Below, in pieces: positions 2,455 through 57,315 of a stretch of DNA of 64,000 nucleotides; positions within the stretch are counted from its first letter, which is position 1, and each line of letters opens with the position of its first letter. The DNA lies in NCBI GenBank assembly GCA_964016885.1, contig OZ024743.1:341682001-341746000 (forward strand), in the 5' to 3' direction. A program made the position numbers and the translations under genes. Origin of the DNA: Eledone cirrhosa (taxonomy: Eukaryota). The notes below the pieces were generated by a model. The model had not been told where the DNA came from. It did no database searches and saw only the letters and a list, made by a program, of their open reading frames with translations.

Positions 2455-3270
2455 TACTATCCAGGGCAAACTCCTACACGAGAAGACGCCGGAGGAAACA
2501 CTACAAATGCTGTTTACGATGGACCAACTCCTAAACAAAAAAGACGAACTTGTAACTGCATGTAAACAGCGAATGCGTAGGACTTAATCTCCCGTCATGA
2601 CCCGGGTGGGTAGACAGTGCCTGCAACATCGTTCTTTTTCCCAATTGCCGAACAAGATAGGGGAAACCCCAGCTAACATACGTAGACTATACTTCTTTTC
2701 TTTTCCTTTTTTCTTTTCTTCTTCCTTTTATGTCTTCCTATCACTTCCTTCCACTCCCTGTCCTCTTCCTTTTCTTTTTTCCTCTGTTCCTACCCCGAGG
2801 CGGCGAATCGGGATTTTGTAGCCTCAGTACGCCCACTCCAGAAAATTATATATAGCATTGGCCGAAAACGCAATATCAACTAAATATAGCAGCTGCTTTA
2901 GACTCTAGAGATTTTCTTATTATTTTTTACTATTTAATTTTATTATGTTTATATTTTTTAAATTTATTTATTATCTTTTAATCTCAATTTATTAACCTAT
3001 TCTATAACGTCCTAATCTCTAATTCCTCCAGGATCCTTTTTCGCCTGCTTCCTAACTAGCCTAATTTCATACACACTCCTTAGCATTTGATGTATAGAAT
3101 TCATTTTCAACGCTTGAACGGCTCCACCCACTCCCTCATTGTTCTATAAGGAATTACCCCTTGAAAAATTCGCCTATTTATTTATCACGCTAAAAATTTC
3201 TAATTTAATCCAGAAATAGTCGTCGAAACGGCTTGAGCTCTGCCGTCGGAGTTAAACATTTTCCTATATC
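2455..3270 (+). mobile_element. PLE 3' end and pLTR, related to the 58.8-63.5 kb family (family A)
   Basis: LLNKKDELVTACKQR matches NKIDELVTACKHR of ORF 60370..60765. The segment ends in the same GTCGAAACGGCTTGAGCTC motif as the family A pLTRs. Confidence 0.8.
3156..3252 (+). ncRNA. Type I hammerhead-like motif, family A, with a U3-A8 core variant
   Basis: ACCCC-TTGAAAA-[long helix II, CGCCTATTT/AAATAGTCG]-GAAA-CGGC-TTGAGCTCT-GCCG-TC^GGAGT. Confidence 0.55.
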
Positions 3271-4286: not shown

Positions 4287-4325
<39 letters not shown>

Positions 4326-4364
4326 GATATTAACAAATGGAAACTATATTTATAAAACCATATC

Positions 4365-4429
4365 TATTTTATTATACATATTTCAAGGATACCATGTTAA
4401 ATTATGTTATGCTTTCATCAGACAAAATA
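4365..4429 (-). ncRNA. Minimal type I hammerhead ribozyme, family B (inverted copy)
   Basis: Reverse complement of 4563-4627 with one helix II mismatch. Confidence 0.8.
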
Positions 4430-4562
4430 CAATATATACCAGTTTTATAAATAAATATTGACATACCCTTTCAAAATGCAACCGTTACTTTTGGAAGACA
4501 AAATTAACGGTTGCATTTTGAAAGGGTATGTCAATATTTATTTATAAAACTGGTATATATTG

Positions 4563-4627
4563 TATTTTGTCTGATGAAAGCATACCATAATTTAACATGG
4601 TATCCTTGAAATATGTATAATAAAATA
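4563..4627 (+). ncRNA. Minimal type I hammerhead ribozyme, family B
   Basis: TATTTTGT-CTGATGA-AAGCATACCAT..ATGGTATCCTT-GAAA-TATGTA-TA^ATAAAATA. Helix I has 8 bp, helix II is present, and loop III is quasi-palindromic. Confidence 0.85.
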
Positions 4628-4754
4628 GATATGGTTTCATAAATATAGTTTCCATTTGTTAATATCATATATTTACTTTAAATACTTGTCGAGTGCTTTA
4701 TATCAGTTATAAACATATTTGCTTGCTGTATCCCAACAATTTAAATAGAACTTT

Positions 4755-4810
<56 letters not shown>

Positions 4811-13330: not shown

Positions 13331-14627
13331 AGGGGGTGTCACTTGGAGTTACTGCAGGTTCACCCGGGAGAGCACTCGATGTTTAGGTTCACTTCTGTGA
13401 TGAGGTGTAGAGCTATACAGAGTGTAATATATTGAAAGGATAACAAGGACGATTGACTACTCCTTCATTGCATTTATTGATAGGTGACGCGCGTTTCGCC
13501 ACTGATCAGCTCAAGGTTCGATCTGTATCGATCCTACCCGACTCAATAATCGGCGGCTCGACGGACCCTTTTAAAATGCTATAAGAAAATGGAATACATG
13601 CTATGTGGTAAAGTCAGAGTTTCAAGAGTTTGACAAAATGAGTTGTTTTGATTGGTGGGAAGGATCAAGGGGATGTACTGTCCTATAGTGTATGTGGGGG
13701 TGGATGTGATGGTGAGATGTTGGTGACGGTTGGGCGATGAGATGGGCTGTGGTGTGGTGGTGGCGGGTTGGCCTTGCCCTGTAGTGTATGTGGGATGGAT
13801 GTGATGATAAGATGGTGGTTATGGTCGCTTACTGGGATGGGCTGTGGTGTGAGGTTAGAGGGTTGTCGATAGAATGGGTTATCATGTGTGGAGGTGTGGT
13901 TGTGGTGTTGTTGTTTATGGTAGTGGTGTATGTGGTGGTGCGGTGGATGTGTTGGTGGTGTCGAGTCCTTACGGAGATACATAGCTAGACGCTCTTCGTC
14001 TGACAAATACGTTGTATATATGTATACACACATATATGTATACATGCGCATATCTATTGATGTATATACACACACAACACATACACACACCCTCGCCCAC
14101 ACATATCCACACACACACACTTACACAGCCATATGCATATACACACACATGTATGGGAATGTGGGCATGTGGACACATATAGGGAGAGTGGGGGAGTATC
14201 GGTGGGGGTGGCGTAGGACAAAGATGGAGGGAAAGTGAGAGGCAATGGAGAAGGTGTCATACATATATACATACACATACATACACTCATACACACATAC
14301 GGATATGCGCACATACAAGCACACACATGTATACATAAACATACACACACACACACACACGTATACACACACATATATATACACACATACACACACACAC
14401 ACATACACTTACATGCACATATACGCACACATATACACACACATATAGATTCACTTATATACATATTTATAAATATAAGTATTAAGTTGTTAAACAAGAT
14501 TCGATGATTATGTCAAAGAATGAGTTTTACAGTAGATTGGAAGCACTCAACGAAAAAATAATTTTCAGGAGTTATTAATATTAAAATATAAGTATTAATA
14601 AAATAGATGTTCTTTTGATCAATTACA

Positions 14628-14678
14628 TTTTATTATACATATTTCGGATGTACAACAGTACGTCCTCATCAGACAAAA
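14628..14678 (-). ncRNA. Minimal type I hammerhead ribozyme in a nested pLTR (family E, starting at about 14480)
   Basis: Minus strand: TTTTGT-CTGATGA-GGACGTAC-TGTT-GTACATCC-GAAA-TATGTA-TA^ATAAAA. Confidence 0.85.
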
Positions 14679-15169
14679 TATAATGATACATGACATACCC
14701 TGAGATGTTAAATAGTTAAGATTTAATCAAGGTAGTGATTACCCGATAGCAAATTTTGCTTATATAATATCTGTGTGAGAGTGCAAAAACGTAATGAATT
14801 CATTAGAGAATGTGTGAGTAAGAAAAAACGTTGCATACTTAAAGTGTTCTAAAATTTTAAATTGTATGATACTACGATATAATATATCTAGGGAAACGTC
14901 TCATGAATTATAACAGCCACTGGAAAAATATTTATAAGGAGGGAAAGATAAAGTGTGTGTGGGGGGATTTGGGGGGTGCGAAAGTTAAACGGTTAGAATT
15001 TGGAAATATTTAATTTATAATATTAATGTTATGACTCCAGATTTCAGATTTATATATTATTTATATAAATTCGTTAAGTGTGTTATCATTTCTAATCTTC
15101 TGAATTGTGAGAATAACATTTTAAAGGATTTAGCTGGCACGTGAAGAATGAAATATTATACTGTTGATT

Positions 15170-15835
15170 AATTACCTAAATACCACAAGCTCTTCAATAG
15201 ACACACCGTAAAATTCTCTTTCTCCACAGCACCAAATCTAGGCCACACAATAGCACACACTAATAGGGCAAAAATACCAAAACACATGGTTGCTTCACAA
15301 CAAACCACCACCACAACCCAGAACGAAACCACACACACAACACAACAACCCACACATCAGACCCACACCGCATGACACCAACCGCCAACGTGCCACCACA
15401 CCGGTTACACCCAACTGCAACTGCAAAAACGGGCCGAATGCCCACTAAACGGGGAGTGCCTCGTTAAAAACATTGTTTACCGGTGTGATGTCACAGACGG
15501 CAATAAGGAGTACTCAGATATAGGGGCGACATCCACTACGTTAAAGGAGCGCTGGTATAACCACAGGAGCTCCTTTAAACATAGACTGAAACGACCCCAA
15601 ACCAGACTGGCCGATTTGATCTGGGACCTCAAGGGCAGGAATATTGAACCCCAGATCTCGTGGTCAGTGAAAAGACGCGTGGCACAAGTCCCCAGTGACA
15701 GAAACCACTGCAGATTATGCCTGGCTGAGGCGGCGGAAATAATTAAATTAAAATCCGCCATAAACTATAGGTCGGACATAATTGTCAATTGCAGACACAC
15801 CAGACTGAACACCTTTCCGCACAAACATTCGGAGG
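15170..15835 (+). pseudogene. PLE linker plus GIY-YIG fragment
   Basis: Manual translation gives KLFNRHTVKFSFSTAPN, CNCKNG and NIVYRCDV..IGATSTTLKERWYNHRSSF. ORF 15616..15969 gives CRLCLAE..NCRH. Confidence 0.85.
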
Positions 15836-17973
15836 AGGGCCATGCACTAACCATGACCCAGCATAATAATAACCACATCTGCCCCGTATCACCATCGCCC
15901 ATCTCAGCGAATTTATTAATTTTAATTTATTTTATCTTATTTTATTGTATTGCATGTAACCATTTGTAAGCCCTTATTTTGTATATCATGCCGCATACAT
16001 CACCCCCACCAAAAATCACACTAACCATGACCCACCATAATAATAACCACCTCTGCCCCGTCTTACCATCGCCCATCTCAGCGAATTTATTTTATTGTAC
16101 TGCATGTGACCATTTCTAAGCTCGTATTTTGTATATCATGCCGCATACATCACCCCCACCATAAATCACATCGCCATACACTCCTCATCCTTGCAACATT
16201 GTGTTCGATCAGTCTTCTGTGACAGGTTTTACCTTACAATCCATAGTAACATCGGACCTTGTAAATACAATGTCGATCATATCACACCATTGCCACCACC
16301 ACCACCACACCACACATCGTCATATTACTACCATACACACCCGCAACCTTATCCCCCCCCCCCATGTTCCCTCTGTCTACCCTAACCTACAACCCCACGC
16401 TAAATTCGACCCTGTAAATGTACTGTCGCGCACACACAACCACCGGCACCACTAGATGCATCCACATACTTCAACAATCATTAACATCATTAAAATCATC
16501 AACACATATCATCCCTCACTCCCAGATCGACTGTATTATATCCCCCCCCCCCCCACGTCTACCTTACCGTGTTACACACCGTAACTTCTGATTATATAAT
16601 CATTTTGTCGAACATATCACCCCAGCACCACCACCACCACCATGACCACAATACACATCGCCATACGTCCATAAACTCTTTACCCCCGCGTCCCCTATGT
16701 CACCTTTTAACCTGTAACCCATCGCACTATTCGATCCTGTATATTTTTGTAGCTCACACTCCACCACAAGACTCAACTCCATACTTTATCAACACTGCCA
16801 ACACATACCTACCCTCCCGAACCAACGCAAGTGTGTGTGTCTGTGTGTAAGCATTGTTTACATATACGGGCGTATAAATATGCGTGCGTGTATGCATATA
16901 TATGTGTGTGTATATATATATACACATATATATATATATTTATATATATGTATATAAGTGAATCTATATGTGTGTGTATATGTCTGCATATATGTGCATG
17001 TAAGTGTATGTGTGTGTGTATATATATATATATGAGTGTGTATACGTGTGTGTGTATGTGTGTATGTGTATGTTTATGTATACGTGTGTGTGCGTGTATG
17101 TGCGCATATCCGTATGTGTGTATCAGTGTATGTATGTGTATGTATATATGTATGACACCTTCTCCATTGCCTCTCATCTTCCCTCCATCTTTGTCCTACG
17201 CCACCCCCACCGACCTCTCCCACTCTCCCTATATGTGTCCACATGCCCGCATGCCCATACATGTGTGTATATATGCATATGGCTGTGTAAGTGTGTGTGT
17301 GTGGATATGTGTGGGCGAGGGTGTGTGTATGTGTTGTGTGTGTATATACATCAATATATATGCGCATGCATACATATATGTGTCTGTATACATATATACA
17401 ACGTATTTGTCAGACGAAGAGCGTCTAGCTATGTATCTCCGTAAGGACTCGACACCACCAACACATCCACCACACCACCACAAACACCACTACCATAAAC
17501 AACACCACAACCACACCCCCACACATGATAACCCATTCTATCGACAACCCTCTAACCTCACACCACAGCCCCATCCCAGTAAGCGACCATAACCACCATA
17601 TTATCATCACACCCACCCCCATATACACTACAGGGTAAGGCCAACCCACCACCACCACACCACAGCCCATCTCATCGCCCGACCGTCACCAACATCTCAC
17701 CATCACATCCATCCCCACATACACTACAGGCCAGTATATCCCATTGATCCTTCCCACCAATCAAAACAACTCATATTGTCAAACTCTTGAAACTCTGACT
17801 TTACCACATAGCATGTATTTCATTTTCTTATAGCATTTTAAAAGGGTCCGTCGAGCCGCCGATTATTGAGTCGGGTAGGATCGATACAGATCGAACCTTG
17901 AGCTGATCAGTGGCGAAACGCGCGTCACCTATCAATAAATGCAACGAAGCAATAATCAATCGTCATTGTTATC

Positions 17974-18026
<53 letters not shown>

Positions 18027-26220: not shown

Positions 26221-26225
<5 letters not shown>

Positions 26226-26690
26226 ATTAAATAAATGGAAAACTATATTTATAAAACCATATTTATTTCATTATATATATTTCGGGGATATCATATTAAC
26301 AATATGCTATGCCTTCATCAGACAAAATACAATATAAACAGTTTTATAGATAAATATATTCGACATACCGTAATAGACATCAACTTCATTTGAAGAGGTT
26401 TACTCTAGCAGTGAAAATACAGAGAGAAAGGAAGAGAGAGAGAAAAGAGGGAAATAAGAAAGAAAGAAAGACAAAACGAAGAAAAGGAAGAAAAAGAAGA
26501 AAAAGAAAAAGAAGAAATGCAAGGGACAAAATAGAGAGATGGAAAAATAGATAAAGCGAAGAGCTTCATGTAAAGAGACAGAAAGAGATATATATATAGA
26601 GAGGGAGAGGAAATAGAGATAGATACATATATAAATATAGAAAAATTAGGTAGTGGGAGGTCATTTTGAGTAAGTGTATCAATGATGCAT

Positions 26691-26725
<35 letters not shown>

Positions 26726-27291
26726 TAAATAAATAAATGCATCATTGATACACTTACTCAAAATGACCTCCCACTACCTAATTTTTCTATATTTATATAT
26801 GTATCTATCTCTATTTCCTCTCTCTATATATATATATATCTCTTTCTGTCTCTTTACATGAAGCTCTTCGCTTTATCTATTTTTCCATCTCTCTATTTTG
26901 TCCCTTGCATTTCTTCTTTTTCTTTTTCTTCTTTTTCTTCCTTTTCTTCGTTTTGTCTTTCTTTCTTTCTTATTTCCCTCTTTTCTCTCTCCCTTCCTTT
27001 CTCTCTGTATTTTCACTGCTAGAGTAAACCTCTTCAAATGAAGTTGATGTCTATTACGGTATGTCGAATATATTTATCTATAAAACTGTTTATATTGTAT
27101 TTTGTCTGATGAAGGCATAGCATATTGTTAATATGATATCCCCGAAATATATATAATGAAATAAATATGGTTTTATAAATATAGTTTTCCATTTATTTAA
27201 TATTGTAAATATACTCCAAATATTTGTCGAGTGCTTTTATATCAGTTATAAATATTTACTAGTTGTAACCCAACAATTTTAAATATAACTT

Positions 27292-27296
<5 letters not shown>
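26221..27296. mobile_element. Palindromic pLTR insertion (family B) with arms of about 490 bp
   Basis: 26221-26710 and 26725-27206 are near-perfect reverse complements centred on a (TTTA)n/(TAAA)n switch. The tail 27207-27296 is on the right only. Confidence 0.92.
27098..27163 (+). ncRNA. Minimal type I hammerhead ribozyme, family B (inverted twin at 26264-26329)
   Basis: TATTTTGT-CTGATGA-AGGCATAGCATATT-GTT-AATATGATATCCCC-GAAA-TATATA-TA^ATGAAATA. Confidence 0.8.
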
Positions 27297-32923: not shown

Positions 32924-34648
32924 TATAAATGCACAGTTAAAACTACCGATAATATATTTAAATATGTTGGTGCCACTTCAACAAAATTTTAGGATCGCTG
33001 GAATAATCATAATCATACTCTAAGAAAATCTGTTAAAAAATCTTCTACTTCACTTTCACATCTTATATGGGATTTAAAATACAATAATATAGAATATTCA
33101 ATATCTTGAAGAAAGATTTCGAAAGCACCTGCATACCGAAATACGGTTTTATCATGATTATGTAAATTGTTTTATCGAAGAAATGTTTTATGTAATTAAC
33201 TGTCAAAACTCTATTAATCTCAGAACAGAATTATTTTCTTCTTGCAAACAACGCCAAAATTCCAAGTCCAGAAGTATTTTTAAATTATAATATCTCTATA
33301 ACCTTCAAAATGATCCTATTTCCTTAACAAAATTTAAATGTAAATTTTTTAAAATTTTTTATATTTTTAAATAATTTTAAATATTTTTAAATATTTTTAA
33401 ATATTTTAAAAATATTTTTAATATTTTAATATTCTTTAATATTTTTAACATTTCAGAAATTCTTTATACCTCTAATATTTATAATAATTTTAATATATAT
33501 AATTAATATTTTATTTTCCTACACCTTTTAATTCTGACATTACTTTTAATTCCGACATTATTTTTAATTCTGACTTTCTTTTGTAAGGACACACCAAATA
33601 TTTTGAGTAGATTGATAATCTTTAAATGATATTCTAAAAATTCATCCTATTTAAGATAGTTCTTTGAAGAACACATTACATTTTTCCTCTCTTTTGTTAT
33701 CTAAACATTCACACATCTTTCGACTAAAGTAATTGATCTCACACCGAATAATATATAATTTTTTCTTCTTTAATTTTAAATAAAATTAGAGTTATCTTTG
33801 CTCTATCAAGCGTTACAAACATAAACACTATTTTCAATCGTGAAAACATAACGATTTTTTGTTTGATAATCTATATAGCTTCGTTAAATTAACAATATTC
33901 TAAAACATTCTCAATGTTGAACAAAATTTTTGAATTCACAAATTATTCTACTCTAACAACTTGAAAATACAATTTCGACACCCTTCGTAACTCATATATA
34001 AACAATCAATACATACGCAACTTATAAAATAAAGTACCAGTAATGCACTGGGTATTTGCTGGCCTTGTGCCTAACGTAGAACCAATTATATATATAGATA
34101 TTTATATACATATACCCTATCCTAATATAATAAGATAAAAATACTTACAACCATAATTCTTCATATGATCTAATTGATTATGTATACAATATTATAACTC
34201 ATAATATAGATAACAAATCTTTTTCCCCAAATTAACGAGTATCCTCTCTCTTCACATACAATAAGTTATCATAATTATTTAAATTTTCCATAGCGTCTAA
34301 AATAACGTTTTTTTCAGCCCTTTTACATAAACCTCATTTGCATACTCATATTAATAATTTTAAATATCTGGTCTTTTTCTCTTCTCATCACTTTCCATGG
34401 ATACCTTGAACTATTAAGGTATATTATCCTTATATTTATAAAACATTTTGTATGTAATCTGATGATAGCGTACCAAAATGTTGGTACCCTTGAAATATAT
34501 ATAATAGAATAAATATTGTTTTATAAATATAGTTTCCAATTATTTAATATCAATGTATATTATACTCCAGAAAAAACTGTTGAGTGCTCTAAATCAGTTA
34601 TAAACATTTATATTCCTTGAATTACCAACAAATTGAATATCCCTTCTG

Positions 34649-34747: not shown

Positions 34748-35382
34748 AATGCAATGAAATACCCATGATCGTTTGGTAAATCACTGATGAGGGACTCATT
34801 TTATAACATGTTATCCATGTGCAACCAGCAGTATTCTTCTCACCCATATTTTTCATATATTTACCCAAACTGCAATTCTGTGTTTCTCTCTTTCTCTCTT
34901 ACTGCTCCCTCGTTCTCTCTGTTTCTCTTACTTTCTTTCGTCCCCTCTGCCATGTCAGTTAACTCTTTCTCTCTACTGACCTCTTCCTCGCACTCCCACT
35001 CACTCAGTCCCTGTTTCTCCCCATCTTTCTTCCCCCCGTTCGCTGGGAAAACGGTTTTCATTCTTTCTAACACCGGATTCACTAGCGAAAGGTCTGTTTC
35101 TGACTCGCTCATATATTCACACAGCTTATGCTGAAAAATAACTATGTTGCTTGTGTTTATTTCCATCTTCGGTTAGGTTCCCCCTGTGTTGTTTACTTGT
35201 CTCACTCGCTTTACGCGTTTCTATTGTCCTAATAACTTATTTTAGTTATTATCACTCCAACGTGAGGTATATGATTTTTAATGCGATGAAATACCCATGA
35301 TCGTTTGGTAAATCACTGATGATGGACTCATTTTATAACATGTTATCCAAGTGCAACCAGCAGTATTCTTCTCACCCATATT

Positions 35383-35390
<8 letters not shown>
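34748..35390 (+). repeat. About 530-bp unit with a ~110-bp terminal direct repeat between (TA)n tracts; related copy at about 5900-6105
   Basis: GAAATACCCATGATCGTTTGGTAAATCACTGATGA...CCCATATTTTTCAT occurs at 34757 and 35288. Confidence 0.75.
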
Positions 35391-35436
<46 letters not shown>

Positions 35437-35560
35437 GGAAAAAATGAAACGAAATTTGCATATCGAGTGGGTTAACCCACTCGATATGCAAATTGGGCTA
35501 CTCAGCCCTTAATATGCATAAGATAAGTATATACGTTCAACAATCTGGGAGGAAGGTATA

Positions 35561-35601
35561 CGTTGCTGACGATAGCTAATAAGCTTGAAACTAGTACAGC
35601 G
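35561..35601 (+). ncRNA. Minimal type I hammerhead ribozyme
   Basis: CGTTG-CTGACGA-TAGCT-AATA-AGCTT-GAAA-CTAG-TA^CAGCG. Confidence 0.9.
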
Positions 35602-35984
35602 TTCCTTTGTCAGTGTTGAACAAACGAGCAACGATGGTTGCTAGACACTACGGCTTAATACGGGATGTTTGTTTACAAACACACCGAGCATTATAATAAA
35701 TGTTCGGTGAATCCAAACGTACATATATATATATGTGTGCATGTATGTATATATATATATACATACTACTGTACGTCTGTATACATATATGTATGTACGT
35801 ATACATACTTATATTTAAGTAACAGCCGTACTAAGAGTGGGAAATGTAATTTCGTTTCATTTTTTCCGTTTATCGTTTTCGGTGCACCCGGCCGATTAAC
35901 TCACTCCATATGCAAATTGGGCTACTCAGCCGTTAATATGCATTAGGTAAGTATATACGTTCAACAATCTGGCTCGAATGTATA

Positions 35985-36025
35985 CGTTGCTGACGATAGC
36001 TAATAAGCTTGAAACTAGTACAGCG
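35985..36025 (+). ncRNA. Minimal type I hammerhead ribozyme
   Basis: Identical core. Helix I extends through GTTCAACA..CTGGC / GCCAG-TGTTGAAC. Confidence 0.9.
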
Positions 36026-36406
36026 TGCCTTTGCCAGTGTTGAACAAACGAGCAACGATGGTTGCTAGACACTACGGCTTAATACGGGATGTTTGTTTAC
36101 AAACACACCGAGCATTATAATAAATGTTCGGTGAATCCAAACGTACATATATATATATGTGTGCATGTATGTATATATATATACATACTACTGTACGTCT
36201 GTATACATATATGTATGTACGTATACATACTTATATTTAAGTAACAGCCGTACTAAGAGTGGGAAATGCAATTTCGTTTCATTTTTTCCGTTTATCGTTT
36301 TCGGTGCACCCGGCCGATTAACTCACTCCATATGCAAATTGGGCTACTCAGCCGTTAATATGCATTAGGTAAGTATATACGTTCAACAATCTGGCTCGAA
36401 GGTATA

Positions 36407-36447
36407 CGTTGCTGACGATAGCTAATAAGCTTGAAACTAGTACAGCG
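36407..36447 (+). ncRNA. Minimal type I hammerhead ribozyme
   Basis: Identical core with the long bulged helix I. Confidence 0.9.
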
Positions 36448-36645
36448 TGCCTTTGCCAGTGTTGAACAAACGAGCAACGATGGTTGCTAGACACTACGGC
36501 TTAATACGGGATATTTGTTTATGAACACACCGAGCATTATAATAAATGTTCAGTGAATCCATACGTACATATATATATGTCTGCATGTATGTATATATAC
36601 ATAGTACTGTACGTCTGTATACATATATGTATGTACGTGTACATA

Positions 36646-36703
<58 letters not shown>

Positions 36704-36709
<6 letters not shown>

Positions 36710-37492
36710 CGGCGATATCGAATTGCGGCAGTGATCAAAAACAAAGCGAAACGCAATTTTCGAGATATGCGGCAAGTGCTCAATGGACTAAAATAAGCCA
36801 GAGTAATAAACATACGTTATAACGGCCAAACAAACTGAAAGCCCCGGTCAAGAAGCCATCAGCCACTCGAGCCAAAAAAACGAAGCAAGCTAAACAGGTC
36901 AAACGAAAGAATTTACTTGGAACCCAGGAATTGATGATATAATCCAGTGAAAGGTTTCTGCGACAAGTAAATCAATTATACTGCCTGCTTCAATATTAAG
37001 CTTTTCGTATAAGGATCGAACAAGGCTGACATTTCGTCAACAGGTATTTTGTTCTATGCCAGCGAGCGGGATCCCAGCAGTAGTAGTAGTAAGGTGCTGT
37101 ATTGATAACCCCACGGGTATTACCCTGCAAGGCAAGTAACCCCAGTTTTTGGCGGATGAATATAGCATGTGTAAAATTAATGCAAGAATTGCCAAAACTG
37201 ACAAATCGAATTAAGCTCTCGATCGGGTTGTTTTAAAAATAAACTTAAGCAATTAATCAGTCAATAGAATTATTTAATAGAATTAACTGTTTAATTACTA
37301 GGCCCCGGAGATTAATACAAATATAATTTCAGCGAGATCGAATTTCGGAAGTTGTCAAAAACAAAGCGAAACGCAATTTTCAAGATATGCGGCAAGCGCT
37401 CAATGGAATAAAAGAAGCCAGAGCAATAAATATAGGTTATAGAGGCCAAACAATCTGACAATGGTGGTCAAGAAGCTACAGCCACCGAATCC
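36704..37492. repeat. About 617-bp unit with a diverged ~170-bp terminal direct repeat
   Basis: TAATTTC(G/A)GCGA..CAAAAACAAAGCGAAACGCAATTTTC occurs at about 36704 and 37324. Confidence 0.7.
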
Positions 37493-37874
37493 AATATATA
37501 TATATATATATAATAGGTAGATTTCCGACGTGGATCGAGACTTGTTGATTAGAAAAACACATGTCTTCTCCTATCTTGTTTTTCTGTTTCTACATATTTT
37601 TACTACATTCGTACGGGCTTCATTTCTTTTCACTCCTAAACACCCACTCAACTCTATTTCTATTTTCTGATTAATCAATAGCGTCCGAAAATTAAGACTG
37701 TTTTTTGACTCTATTGAATGGTAATCTAACATAGGATTATGGCATTGTATTGTTGTTTTGTATTTTTTTCAACCTCAACGTTTCTTCCACACATTCCTCA
37801 AACACACACGCGCGCGCGTACAGACACAGATAGTTGTGTATATATAAATATATCAATAATAATGATATAATGAT

Positions 37875-38231: not shown

Positions 38232-38455
38232 TACCAAGATAATAACAAATGGAAACTATATTTATAAAACCATATTTATTTTATTATATATATTTCAAGG
38301 GCAACCAATATATATAATAAAATAAATATGGTTTTATAAATAGTTTCCATTTATTATTATCTTGGAATATTTACTCCAGTAATTTGTTGAGTGCTCTATA
38401 TCAGTTATAACCATTTATGTTTGTCGGAACTCCAACAAATTAAGTACAACGCCTT

Positions 38456-38516
<61 letters not shown>

Positions 38517-38715
38517 CGAAGGAAATGTGGTAAGGAACCAGGTGGACCATAACGCACCAAAGTACTCAATACTTGAGGTAGTAGAGTGGGTAATAGGAAC
38601 CAGTAAGACCCCGGCAGCTGAGCTCAAGCCGTTTCGACGGCTAATTCTGGACTAGATTTAGTCCAGAATTAGCCGTCGAAACGGCTTGAGCTCAGCTGTC
38701 GGGGTCTTACTGGTT

Positions 38716-38757
<42 letters not shown>

Positions 38758-38949
38758 TAAATGTTTAACCCCGACGACAGGGCTCAATCCGTTTCGACGG
38801 TCATTTTTTTTTTAGTCCAGAAATAGCCGTCGAAACGGCTTGAGCTCTGCCGTCGTGGTTAAATATTTTCCTATTTCCCACTCTACTACCCTAAGTATTG
38901 ATTACTCTGGTGCGTTATGGTCCATCTGTTTATTTACCACGCTTCGTTC

Positions 38950-38955
<6 letters not shown>
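38232..38955. mobile_element. Cluster of three miniature fold-back pLTR insertions: 38232-38456 (family B), 38514-38720 and 38753-38953 (family A)
   Basis: Each is a short palindrome of a pLTR 3' end with a one-sided tail; they are separated by (TA)n. Confidence 0.85.
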
Positions 38956-41899: not shown

Positions 41900-42080
41900 T
41901 AACGAAGGAAATGTGGTAAGGAACCAGGTGGACCATAACGCACCAAAGTACTCAATACTTGAGGTAGTAGATTGGGTAATAGGAACCAGTAAGACCCCGA
42001 CAGCTGAGCTCAAGCCGTTTCGACGGCTAAAGCCGTCGAAATGGCTTGAGCTCAGCTGTCGGGGTCTTACTGGTTCCTAT
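41900..42080. mobile_element. Miniature fold-back pLTR, family A
   Basis: TAACGAAGGAAATGTGG...TTCGACGGCTAAAGCCGTCGAA...GTTCCTAT inside (TA)n. Confidence 0.85.
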
Positions 42081-51922: not shown

Positions 51923-51925
<3 letters not shown>

Positions 51926-52125
51926 CAAAGGAAATGTGGTAAGGAACCAGATGGACCATAACGCACCAGAGTGCTCAATACTTAGGGTAGAAGAGTGGGA
52001 AATATGAAAAAGTATGACCCCGACGGCAGACCTCAAGCCGTTTCGACGGCTATTTCTGGACTAGTCCAGAAATAGCCGTCAAAACGGCTTGAGCTCTGCC
52101 GTCGGGGGGTCATACTTTTTCCTAT
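51923..52125. mobile_element. Miniature fold-back pLTR, family A variant
   Basis: Palindrome centred on TTTCTGGACTAGTCCAGAAA at about 52062; (TA)n flanks. Confidence 0.85.
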
Positions 52126-54049: not shown

Positions 54050-54542
54050 TTAAAGAGTTAAACAAGATTCAATGAGTACATCAAATAATAAGTTTTACAG
54101 TAGATTGGAAGCACTCTACAGGGAAAAATATTTTCCAGAGTTATTAATATTAAAATACAAATATTAATAAAATAGATGTTCTTTTGATCAATTAAATTTT
54201 ATTATACATATTTCAGACGTACAACAGTACATCCTCATCTGACAAAATATAATGATACATTTAACATCTCAGGGGGGTGGATTGGCAGTATCGGTAGAGA
54301 GTCGGACACCATGCTTTGAAGCATAGAGTTAAGTCCCGCCGAGATTAACTTTGCCTTTCATCCTTACGGGGTCGATAAAATAAAGTACCAGTAATGTACT
54401 GGATATGTTGCTGGCCTTGTGCCTAAAATAGACACAATTATTTTTGTCTGATGAGGATGTACTGTTGTACCTCTGATATATGTATAATAAAATTTAATTG
54501 ATCAAAAGAACATCTATTTTATTAATATTTGTATTTTAATAT
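54050..54542. mobile_element. Fold-back pLTR (family E) with a SINE (54277-54440) at its centre
   Basis: 54146-54247 and 54441-54542 are inverted and homologous to 14480-14710. The HHR cores are mutated (CAGATGA in one, GATA in the other). Confidence 0.8.
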
Positions 54543-54561
54543 ATATATATATATATATATA

Positions 54562-54962
54562 TTTAAAAAGATAGAGGTGTGACACACGATTTGTGATATA
54601 TTAGTAAAAAGGAAACGAAAATGCTGACAAATTTATCCCAGTGAAAAATAGTTTAATTAGGAATAACTATAAATTAGTAATAAGTATTAGTAATAAGTAT
54701 AAATTAGTAATAAGTATTTTTGCTCTAATCAGATTAGAGCAAAAATCACGAACACTCTATCTCAAAATTATTTTTGAAAAGCATAAGAAATGCGCAACCG
54801 GTAAAAACTTAAAACTAAAACTGAATACGAACTAATACTTATTACTAATTTATACTTATTCCTAATTAAACTATTCTTCACTGGGAAAAATGTGTCAGCA
54901 TTTTCTTTTCCTTTTTACTGATATATGACAACTCGTGTGTCACACCTCTATTTTTTTAAAAT
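54562..54962. mobile_element. Miniature fold-back of the 29.5/32.5-kb pLTR family
   Basis: GAAAATGCTGACA...AATTAGGAATAA and its reverse complement; central TTTTGCTCTAATCAGATTAGAGCAAAA. Confidence 0.8.
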
Positions 54963-54973
54963 ATATATATATA

Positions 54974-56380
54974 TGAATAAAGTTAATATATCTGAGGGTA
55001 CAAGGTACCCCCAGAAATATATATAGGTTGTCTATGATTCAAGGAGGTTCTATGGTAATAATTTGATATACCAGAACTTAATATCAAGATAAGCAGAACA
55101 AGCAAAATTCAACCAATTTTTCAAAATAAATCAAAAATAATTTACAATTAAAATTAATCAAAATTAAAAAATATAATATAAATATTTACCTATTCAAATA
55201 GCCCTTACTGTACAGTTTCACTTTGCAAAACATGAGATATCACATGGATATTAATGGAAAAACAAAGATCATCAGAGAAGCATTTTCCTTTCCTAGGGTT
55301 AAAAACCTCAGGAACGATAAAATATATGACCTCGTCTCCAACTGACACGAGTCTAAAGGTCGTAAAAGTGACCCGTATGTTCGCTGGTGTGAAGTGAAGG
55401 CGGGAAATCGTAGACTTGTTGTCTATAGTCGCCACTAAAAAAAATAGCAGCTAATTAGAACGACAGATTTGTTCTCTACATAACGGAGAATAATGAATAA
55501 AGTTAATATATCTGAGGGTACAAGGTACCCCCAGAAATACATAGGTTGTCTATGATTCAAGGTGGTTCTATGGTAATAATTTGATATACCAGAACTTAAT
55601 ATCAAGATAAGCAGAACAAGCAAAATTCAACCAATTTTTCAAAATAAATCTAGGAAAGGAAAATGCTTCTCTGATGATCTTTGTTTTTCCATTGATATCC
55701 ATGTGATATCTAATGTTTTGCAAAGTGAAACTGTACAGTAAGGGCTATTTGAATAAGTAAATATTTATATTATATTTTTTAATTTTGATCAATTTTAATT
55801 GTAAATTAATTTTGATTTATTTTGAAAAATTGGTTGAATTTTGCTTGTCTGCATATCTTGATATTAAGTTCTGGTATATCAAATTATTACCATAGAACCA
55901 CCTTGAATCATAGACAACCTATGTATTTCTGGGGGTACCTTATACCCTCAGATATATTAACTTTATTCATTATTCTCCGTTATGTAGAGAACAAATCTGT
56001 CGTTCTGTCTAGCTGCTATTTTTTTAGTGGCAACTATAGACAACAAGTCTACGATTTCCCACCTTCACTTCACACCAGCGAACATACGGGTCACTTTTAC
56101 GACCTTTAGACTCGTGTCAGTTGGAGACGAGGTCATATATTTTATCGTTCCTGAGGTTTTTAACCCTAGGAAAGGAAAATGCTTCTCTGATGATCTTTGT
56201 TTTTCCATTAATATCCATGTGATATCTCATGTTTTGCAAAGTGAAACTGTACAGTAAGGGCTATTTGAATAGGTAAATATTTATATTATATTTTTTAATT
56301 TTGATTAATTTTAATTGTAAATTAATTTTGATTTATTTGGAAAAATTGGTTGAATTTTGCTTGTTCTGCTTATCTTGATA
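54974..56380. mobile_element. Non-coding 516-521-bp unit as two head-to-head partial tandem arrays, with hammerheads
   Basis: About 1.3 units on the minus strand (54974-55650) and 1.4 on the plus strand (55650-56380). ORFs 55205..55435(-) and 56027..56257(+) are near-identical. Confidence 0.85.
55665..55745 (+). ncRNA. Type I hammerhead ribozyme with an extended helix II (copies at 56181-56261 + and 55201-55281 -)
   Basis: GCTTCT-CTGATGA-TCTTTG-[CATTGATATC..GATATCTAATG hairpin]-CAAAGT-GAAA-CTGTACAG-TA^AGGGC; loop III is a perfect palindrome. Confidence 0.75.
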
Positions 56381-56842: not shown

Positions 56843-57315
56843 TGACGAATACCAATAGTATGAAACAGAGATCTGTCAGCTTATCTCCCTTGTTTGTTGA
56901 AAAAAGAAATAAGTAACATAGTCGCTACTTTAAAATGATAGCGTAAGGTCTTCAAAATGTTTTAAATTAAGTATACAGTGTATTGCCAAATATGCGATAG
57001 ATCTCTGTTTCATATATACATCGCTATTTCAGAGCACCAATTCTAATTTTCAATTTTTGCTGGACCGGCAACCGCTCTGTATAATCAGTTCCTGATTATT
57101 ACTGAAATTCTATAAGAATCCAACATTTATAATTTTCAACAAACAAGGGGAGTGCTAGGCTCTGACGAATACCAACAGTATGAAACAGAGATCTGTCAGC
57201 TCATCTCCGTCTGTTTGTTGAAAAAAGAAGTAAGTGACATAGTCACTACTTTAAAACAATAGCGTAAGGTCTTCAAAATGTTTTTAATCAAGCATACAGT
57301 GTATTGCCAAATATA
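56843..57315 (+). mobile_element. Non-coding ~320-bp unit, about 1.5 tandem copies with hammerheads; retrozyme-like
   Basis: TGACGAATACCAA(T/C)AGTATGAAACAGAGATCTGTCAGCT occurs at 56843 and 57163; the element ends in (TA)n. Confidence 0.8.
57133..57224 (+). ncRNA. Type I hammerhead ribozyme with a long helix I
   Basis: GGCT-CTGACGA-ATAC-CAACA-GTAT-GAAA-CAGA-GA-TCTG-TC^AGCT, closed by TTTTCAACAAACA/TGTTTGTTGAAAA. Confidence 0.9.

Follow-up and report, generated by a model that had tools for sequence, protein, structure and literature searches.

Which enzyme spreads the retrozymes of animals, and whether it works from a circle, are questions for which the literature, in the text available for the works cited here, offers proposals. 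Penelope-type elements (PLEs) were proposed as mobilizers of animal retrozymes by Cervera and de la Pena 2020 (PMC7229834) and in PMC7761336, and an origin of retrozymes from PLEs was proposed in PMC5680766. In the available text of their preprint, Li, Clavereau, and Pollet 2026 (bioRxiv 10.64898/2026.07.22.740005) consider retrozymes to be non-autonomous derivatives of PLEs, based on co-occurrence and on pLTR homology and phylogeny, mainly in vertebrates. Insertion scars are evidence independent of co-occurrence and phylogeny. A short array of non-coding repeats in the 64,000-nt stretch of Eledone cirrhosa DNA analyzed here (the window) raises the question of what its own scars indicate.

Architecture of the Array in the TA Microsatellite

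Starting at position 35472, a 422-nt unit is repeated in tandem 2.8 times with 96% matches. The features of the locus are the following:

35387..35433, no strand: left (TA)n target, 23.5 units
35433..35456, minus: outer part of the 5′ inversion (reverse complement of unit 35848-35871), bounded on its outer side by the recurrent 3′ end of the family
35453..35494, no strand: perfect 42-nt palindrome, centered on TT/AA
35472..35895, plus: unit 1 (424 nt); in its first 139 nt, 10 positions set it apart from both units 2 and 3
35560..35602, plus: copy 1 of the type I hammerhead motif, predicted to be cut after 35596
35720..35814, plus: TA/TG-rich hairpin block inside the unit; its terminal TATAT is the site where the right end of the array meets (TA)n
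35815..35873, plus: putative "tail" of about 60 nt between both insertion ends in unit register
35896..36317, plus: unit 2 (422 nt), 37% G+C
35984..36026, plus: copy 2 of the type I hammerhead motif, predicted to be cut after 36020
36318..36652, plus: unit 3, partial; its terminal TATAT is common with the right (TA)n
36406..36448, plus: copy 3 of the type I hammerhead motif, predicted to be cut after 36442
36648..36705, no strand: right (TA)n target, 29 units, (TA)29

As an earlier note on this DNA had claimed, the array opens with the reverse complement of an internal segment of the unit. In detail, the 24 nt at 35433-35456 are the exact reverse complement of 35848-35871 and of 36270-36293, both of which lie inside units. 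The perfect palindrome reported to follow is present with a length of 42 nt, but it ends at 35494 and the earlier end point, 35495, was one base too far. It is the longest among the seven perfect non-TA palindromes of at least 16 nt in the 64-kb window. The left arm of the palindrome repeats the initial 23 nt of unit 1 in inverted orientation and is joined to the outer inverted piece via a common AATT, in which the two overlap. The inverted arm measures about 41 nt in total, in two pieces, and the inner inversion junction connects the only two AATT sites in the compared stretch. The terminal ATA (3 nt) of the left (TA)n is also complementary to the TAT of the unit at 35871-35873.

The presence of (TA)n at both array ends, also claimed before, was confirmed, with (TA)23.5 on the left (35387-35433) and (TA)29 on the right (36648-36705). 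The window is AT-rich (35.6% G+C) and contains 49 runs of (TA)≥8; the chance of an array end lying at most 3 nt from such a run is about 0.0055 per end and about 3e-5 for both ends. An inverted copy of a TA-abutting end was found in 12 of the 40 segments between (TA)≥8 runs, one of the 12 being probably a low-complexity artifact. The inversion and TA architecture of the array is real, yet locally common. The right end of the array lacks a poly(A). The flanks are (TA)n on both sides, so that a TSD, of more than 4 bp or otherwise, is indistinguishable from them.

The stretches flanking the array (34749-35386 and 36706-37493) are themselves TA-bounded partial tandems with direct repeats of 105 nt and about 160 nt, in which neither a hammerhead nor an ORF of 150 aa was detected. 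The array region is a chain of TA-targeted insertions.

The Unit and Its Hammerhead Motif

By descriptor search, a type I hammerhead motif was located in all three units, always on the plus strand (cores 35566, 35990, and 36412). Helix I consists of 6-7 bp and a predicted extension, helix II of 4 bp with a U.U at its base, and helix III of a single pair capped by a palindromic tetraloop. With a relaxed descriptor, the window yielded 12 motifs and each of 10 shuffled sequences 0-1. Rfam returned no match in the window at the gathering score. At E≤1 on the array there were 61 Rfam matches, all below the gathering score, mostly of miRNA models on the TA-rich hairpin and none of a ribozyme, and the exact 31-nt hammerhead pattern had no match in metagenome_contigs.

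The predicted geometry fits the canonical, dimer-dependent metazoan type, as described in the available text of PMC4209133. The minimal hammerhead of PLEs (min-HHR) has a helix II of 7-8 bp, an extra base before helix II, and an absent or minimal helix III. This label was considered for the unit and rejected on its helix II (4 bp plus U.U) and its helix I (6-7 bp with extension).

By sequence criteria the array is classed as a non-LTR retrozyme. Retrozymes form head-to-tail tandems of units of about 150-450 bp, and here 422 nt are repeated 2.8 times. They are non-coding with G+C below 50%, and the unit has 37% G+C, a longest stop-free stretch of 95 aa, and no blastx match to the five PLE peptides of the window. 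Similarly to the animal non-LTR retrozymes in the available text of PMC7229834, the array consists of head-to-tail non-coding units of a few hundred bases with low G+C and one type I hammerhead per unit. In the same text, helix III of the unit has its counterpart in the axolotl HHR_Amex1 and the U.U at the base of helix II in HHR_Amex2. Expression as circRNA and self-cleavage were shown for the retrozymes of that work.

A Mosaic of Units

The differences among the three units are distributed in blocks. Unit 1 has 10 private substitutions, every one of them within columns 1-139; the 11 of unit 3 are confined to columns 196-343, and unit 2 has one private change. Units 2 and 3 show a single difference across columns 1-195. 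Beyond its first 195 nt, unit 2 differs from unit 1 by one substitution and one TA indel, and the two are identical in columns 196-343 but for the TA indel. The probability of such an order is P = 3e-4 if neighboring changes are merged and 6e-6 if they are not. The three units are an ordered mosaic and not equal copies of one circle, and therefore one pass round a single circle fails to explain the array. The best reading is that about 1.8 units, whose two halves are unlike, were inserted and that one unit was duplicated more recently, or else that several templates were copied.

A different template model, compatible with PLE machinery, has all 2.8 units copied in a single pass by rolling-circle reverse transcription from one circular monomer; it is quite unlikely. 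It agrees with the circRNA model in the available text of PMC7229834 and PMC4209133, with the hammerhead motif in every unit, and with the two complete cut-to-cut monomers, which differ by only about 1%. The 422-nt monomer is also predicted to fold more stably than shuffled sequences (z −5.8 with the TA block; z −2.8 for the 321-nt stretch without it). However, equal copies would diverge evenly and not in the blocks described above, and neither array end is placed at a predicted cut site. For the family as a whole, there may be a circular intermediate. The earlier expectation that variable starts within the unit would reveal a circular template does not hold at this locus, where the 3′ end looks fixed and the units are a mosaic; variable 5′ truncation, for its part, is expected of any PLE.

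A Recurrent 3′ End in Public Sequencing Runs

Of the 24 public runs listed, none of them from RNA, four (X1, X5, X6, and X23) were aligned to 35635-36065, that is, 431 of 1214 bases, with 35635-35812 skipped. Sequences were aligned at 85% likeness to part of one unit, and runs with a small share were left out. The aligned sequences comprise 5743 contigs of X1, 40649 reads of X23, 2 contigs of X5, and 13 contigs of X6; contigs represent sequence variants rather than counted insertions, and the organisms of the runs may differ from the species of the window. The X1 contigs and X23 reads indicate a multi-copy family in these public runs.

Among the X1 contigs, 339 of the 5743 are only partly aligned. 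In 40 contigs of this run the sequence leaves the unit at 35873 and continues into (AT)n, which is the largest of the six loose ends listed for X1; it is not among the six listed for the raw-read run X23. In the window, 35873 is the base where the inverted arm starts. Because 40 X1 contigs end at that base, the outer end of the inversion is a family-wide recurrent end rather than a random break.

Contigs of X1, X5, and X6, which carry different organism labels, span the ORF-less head-to-tail junction 35873-35896. The variants 35983/36027 and 35987/36023, phased in one X5 contig, preserve the pairing of helix I. Thousands of X23 reads and an X5 contig match the hammerhead region only (35980 to 36048) and then diverge, pointing to further candidate subfamilies that would share the same ribozyme module.

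Seven of the 10 private letters of unit 1 are the majority letters in run X1. The repetition of unit-1 letters in the palindrome arm was considered as proof of self-templating and was rejected, since these letters are the X1 majority.

X23 read ends at 35848-35852 and 35915-35918 coincide with the two AATT sites, a pile-up which is probably a restriction-library artifact. Ten of the 12 listed joints show a change of strand. Five joints cluster at 35824-35827 with sides below 30, and another has a single start and a 28-nt side; only four strand-changing joints (sides 36-43) hint, weakly, at variable inversions.

These joints bear on the idea that repair or template switching at a fragile (TA)n captured repeat DNA, which folded back, all at the DNA level, or that the inner junction is an assembly chimera. 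The (TA)n density of the window (49 runs) is in its favor, and the inner junction joins the only two AATT sites, while a similar AATT joint was found in two reads of the restriction library. The exact two-piece junction is also absent among the joints listed from the public runs. Against this idea, repair would not hit one base in 40 contigs, and the architecture marks coding PLEs and not the SINE-like copies described below. Of the explanations weighed against each other here, this is the least probable.

Coding PLEs and Other Repeats of the Window

A tblastn search with the peptides of the window identified eight coding PLE remnants. The claim that the coding PLEs share the 5′ inversion and the target signature of the array stands for the inversion, present in five of the eight, but not for long (TA)n at both ends, found in one only. 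In six remnants, homology places one end or more at (TA)≥8; in the two others, the TA edge itself served to set that end. In a SINE-like control family, none of the 20 ends of 10 copies is within 90 nt of (TA)≥8.

The remnant P5 (29510-32516) contains RT and GIY-YIG, and its CX4CxxC linker is of the Neptune/Nematis type. P8, which runs from 58823 to the end of the window, has the motifs RW(K/R), DKT, and CxCX5C, which, in the available text of PMC8557442, characterize the Hydra clade, a clade inserting in (TA)n and carrying canonical hammerheads. Pfam recognized GIY-YIG only, in one of the five peptides of the window. In the Atlas, the P8 peptide is near unnamed animal clusters and RT-named clusters, which may serve as a lead only.

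There is no nucleotide homology between the unit and the coding PLEs of the window (best non-microsatellite E 0.088-0.31). A comparison of the unit with the rest of the window, including the eight coding remnants, showed no significant similarity outside the microsatellite block and no 3′ similarity to a partner. A 3′ end motif shared with the coding PLEs was tried and rejected: 6 of its 22 occurrences abut TA, its definition was post hoc, and in a rank test against P8 the putative motif was unremarkable (8th of 125 TA-abutting ends). Of 129 compared, the two that best match the end of the array are 3′ ends of coding remnants, with low scores.

The resemblance of the junctions would also fit another origin of the array, in which the unit is the pseudo-LTR of a coding PLE outside the window. 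A truncated partial tandem made in cis would later have undergone local duplication, and no independent non-coding family would exist. The junction anatomy of the array is identical to that of the coding PLE fragments of the window, the mosaic reveals a young one-unit duplication, and the other subfamilies in the run data have only 35980-36048 in common. Li et al. also derive retrozymes from pLTRs followed by local tandem amplification, in the available text of bioRxiv 10.64898/2026.07.22.740005. Nevertheless, the unit has no ORF above 95 aa and no PLE match in blastx, the ORF-less head-to-tail junction occurs in contigs of three runs with different organism labels, and the helix II of the unit is short, as in retrozymes, and not long, as in the motifs linked to PLEs in the window. 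A pseudo-LTR origin thus appears unlikely.

Several other repeats of the window have comparable features. A second non-coding tandem, at 1-1550, has a 565-nt unit in at least 2.6 copies and is truncated by the start of the window; at its other end, an inversion of 39 nt (1496-1534) adjoins (TA)8. Its unit differences are interspersed and not in blocks, and no hammerhead was found in it by descriptor or Rfam. The pseudo-LTRs of the Hydra-type PLE (59005 and 62812, minus strand) contain a motif resembling a hammerhead, whose helix III is stable and whose helix II region is very long. In this motif, core position 8 is occupied by a non-canonical base; the homologue near 3160 has the U3-A8 core. 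Fold-back fragments of the P8 3′ end are located between (TA)n runs at 38516-38717, 38756-38952, 41902-42077, and 51925-52122, with two recurrent ends 80 nt apart; the last includes a perfect 36-nt palindrome (52045-52080).

A further hammerhead family with a long helix II occupies 4325-4757, 26222-27294, 34433-34639, and 38234-38450 and forms large fold-backs adjoining (TA)n, with arms of up to 489 nt. A third family is found at 14489-14691 and 54057-54539, with an intact motif at 14672 on the minus strand; one copy of this family is nested within the coding remnant 13427-17976. At 56843-57314, a 150-nt sequence is present twice at a distance of 320 nt, with a core resembling that of a hammerhead at 57162, and its second copy ends in (TA)n. 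In the region 54563-56378, a fold-back (54562-54960) is a non-coding relative of the P5 3′ end, and a nested tandem and inverted repeat of complex structure comes after it.

Two Insertion Ends and a Proposed Mechanism

In unit register, the right end of the array is at 35814 (TATAT common with the flank) and the left end at 35873 (TAT), about 60 nt apart. The end at 35814 was seen at one locus and may be due to a later deletion between the internal TATAT and the flank. Two ends are also a property of the coding elements: P5 has two inverted ends 39 nt apart, and the P8-family fold-back fragments (38516 and 41902) have two ends 80 nt apart at both loci. The inversion of the array duplicates its 3′ end, as do those of the coding P5 and of the Hydra-type P8 fold-backs.

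According to the available text of PMC8557442, PLEs carry an inverted truncated 5′ copy and a tail of 30-40 bp at one end only. In the available text of PMC11167929, this tail is traced to two internal RT start sites, and cleavage and extension take place in vitro on both strands of AT-rich DNA, hammerhead cleavage not being needed. Like PLEs, the array is a partial tandem in which an inverted, truncated copy begins at the 3′ end, and it has a microsatellite target, seen both in the (TA)n at its two ends and in the 40 X1 contigs that continue into (AT)n. Its apparent offset, about 60 nt, is longer than the tail of 30-40 bp described for PLEs, and both of its ends show 3-5 nt of TA homology, in contrast to the priming without target homology of Frangieh et al., as given in the available text of PMC11167929.

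Inversions at the 5′ end are also known from L1, where they arise via twin priming. In twin priming, the inverted part is an upstream segment and not a second copy of the 3′ end. If a LINE or another retrotransposon had inserted the RNA into (TA)n in this way, an upstream segment would be inverted, whereas the inverted arm here starts at the recurrent 3′ end. The array has no poly(A), and the SINE-like family of the window is without the signature. Cervera 2020 keeps LINEs open as mobilizers in the available text of PMC7229834; for the present array this route is very unlikely. A Helitron-type origin was considered in view of Helitron end motifs and set aside.

The array probably represents a single insertion from an abundant family of non-coding retrozymes, placed in (TA)n by the RT/GIY-YIG protein of a PLE, supplied from elsewhere. 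By analogy with the in vitro work on PLEs, the endonuclease would nick both strands within (TA)n. Reverse transcription of the repeat RNA would then be primed by both 3′ ends, at the internal sites 35814 and 35873, which are about 60 nt apart and have 3-5 nt of TA homology each. The long cDNA would copy more than one unit and so yield the tandem. The short cDNA would start at the downstream site 35873, jump between two look-alike sites containing AATT, and end at TTAA, where the two cDNAs would join head to head and leave the palindrome. The short arm may have arisen by such a jump of the RT, by snap-back on the nascent cDNA, or from a longer arm that later lost about 357 nt.

The earlier note had claimed that a PLE mobilizes the hammerhead repeats in trans. 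The inverted recurrent 3′ end, the joins to (AT)n, the lack of poly(A), and the non-coding unit all agree with this claim; no partner was found in the window, and everything that concerns the enzymes, including their action in trans, we infer by analogy. The likeliest driver, as a guess, would be a PLE of the Hydra or Neptune type, because both types occur in the window with (TA)n ends.

A more general proposal is plausible, if somewhat short of probable: animal retrozymes with canonical hammerheads may be inserted by two-ended TPRT of PLEs from two fixed internal starts, with the tail and the inversion of the 3′ end as diagnostic marks. Multimers would then be mosaics or later duplications and not rolling-circle copies.

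Relation to Known Systems

The available text of PMC7229834 describes the ends of retrozymes only as larger TSDs when present, and the words "inverted" and "microsatellite" do not occur in its main text. The words "tail" and "junction" are likewise absent from the available text of the preprint of Li et al.; the array, by contrast, provides junction evidence without pLTR homology. No junction-level evidence for hammerhead retrozymes was found in the available texts of the literature searched.

Close analogs are the non-autonomous Chlamys PLEs of Chlamydomonas (MRC1 and Chlamys-N4). According to the available text of PMC8557442 and bioRxiv 10.1101/2022.05.23.493040, these are multicopy head-to-tail insertions with microsatellite targets, active alongside an autonomous partner. 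The array resembles them in being non-coding, head-to-tail, and targeted to a microsatellite. Unlike the array, the Chlamys elements, as described in those texts, are algal, have a (C)n target, belong to a clade without canonical hammerheads, and generally show 3′ similarity to their partner.

With the coding PLEs of the Hydra and Neptune types, as far as described in the available text of PMC8557442 and PMC11167929, the array shares the insertion in (TA)n, the inverted truncated 5′ copy, what would be two alternative 3′ ends, and a hammerhead upstream of these ends. It differs from them in having no ORF, an offset of about 60 nt versus 30-40 bp, and an inverted arm of about 41 nt in two pieces. 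In its anatomy, the array seems to work like a non-autonomous PLE.

The idea that PLEs mobilize retrozymes is already published, and the insertion scars of this array are modest additional support for it. The result backs an existing hypothesis on the basis of one assembled locus and of contig ends. The fixed 3′ end points to an RNA site that could be used in an in vitro PLE assay. If retrozymes are indeed inserted by two-ended TPRT of PLEs, this family would be a defined non-coding substrate for a direct test.
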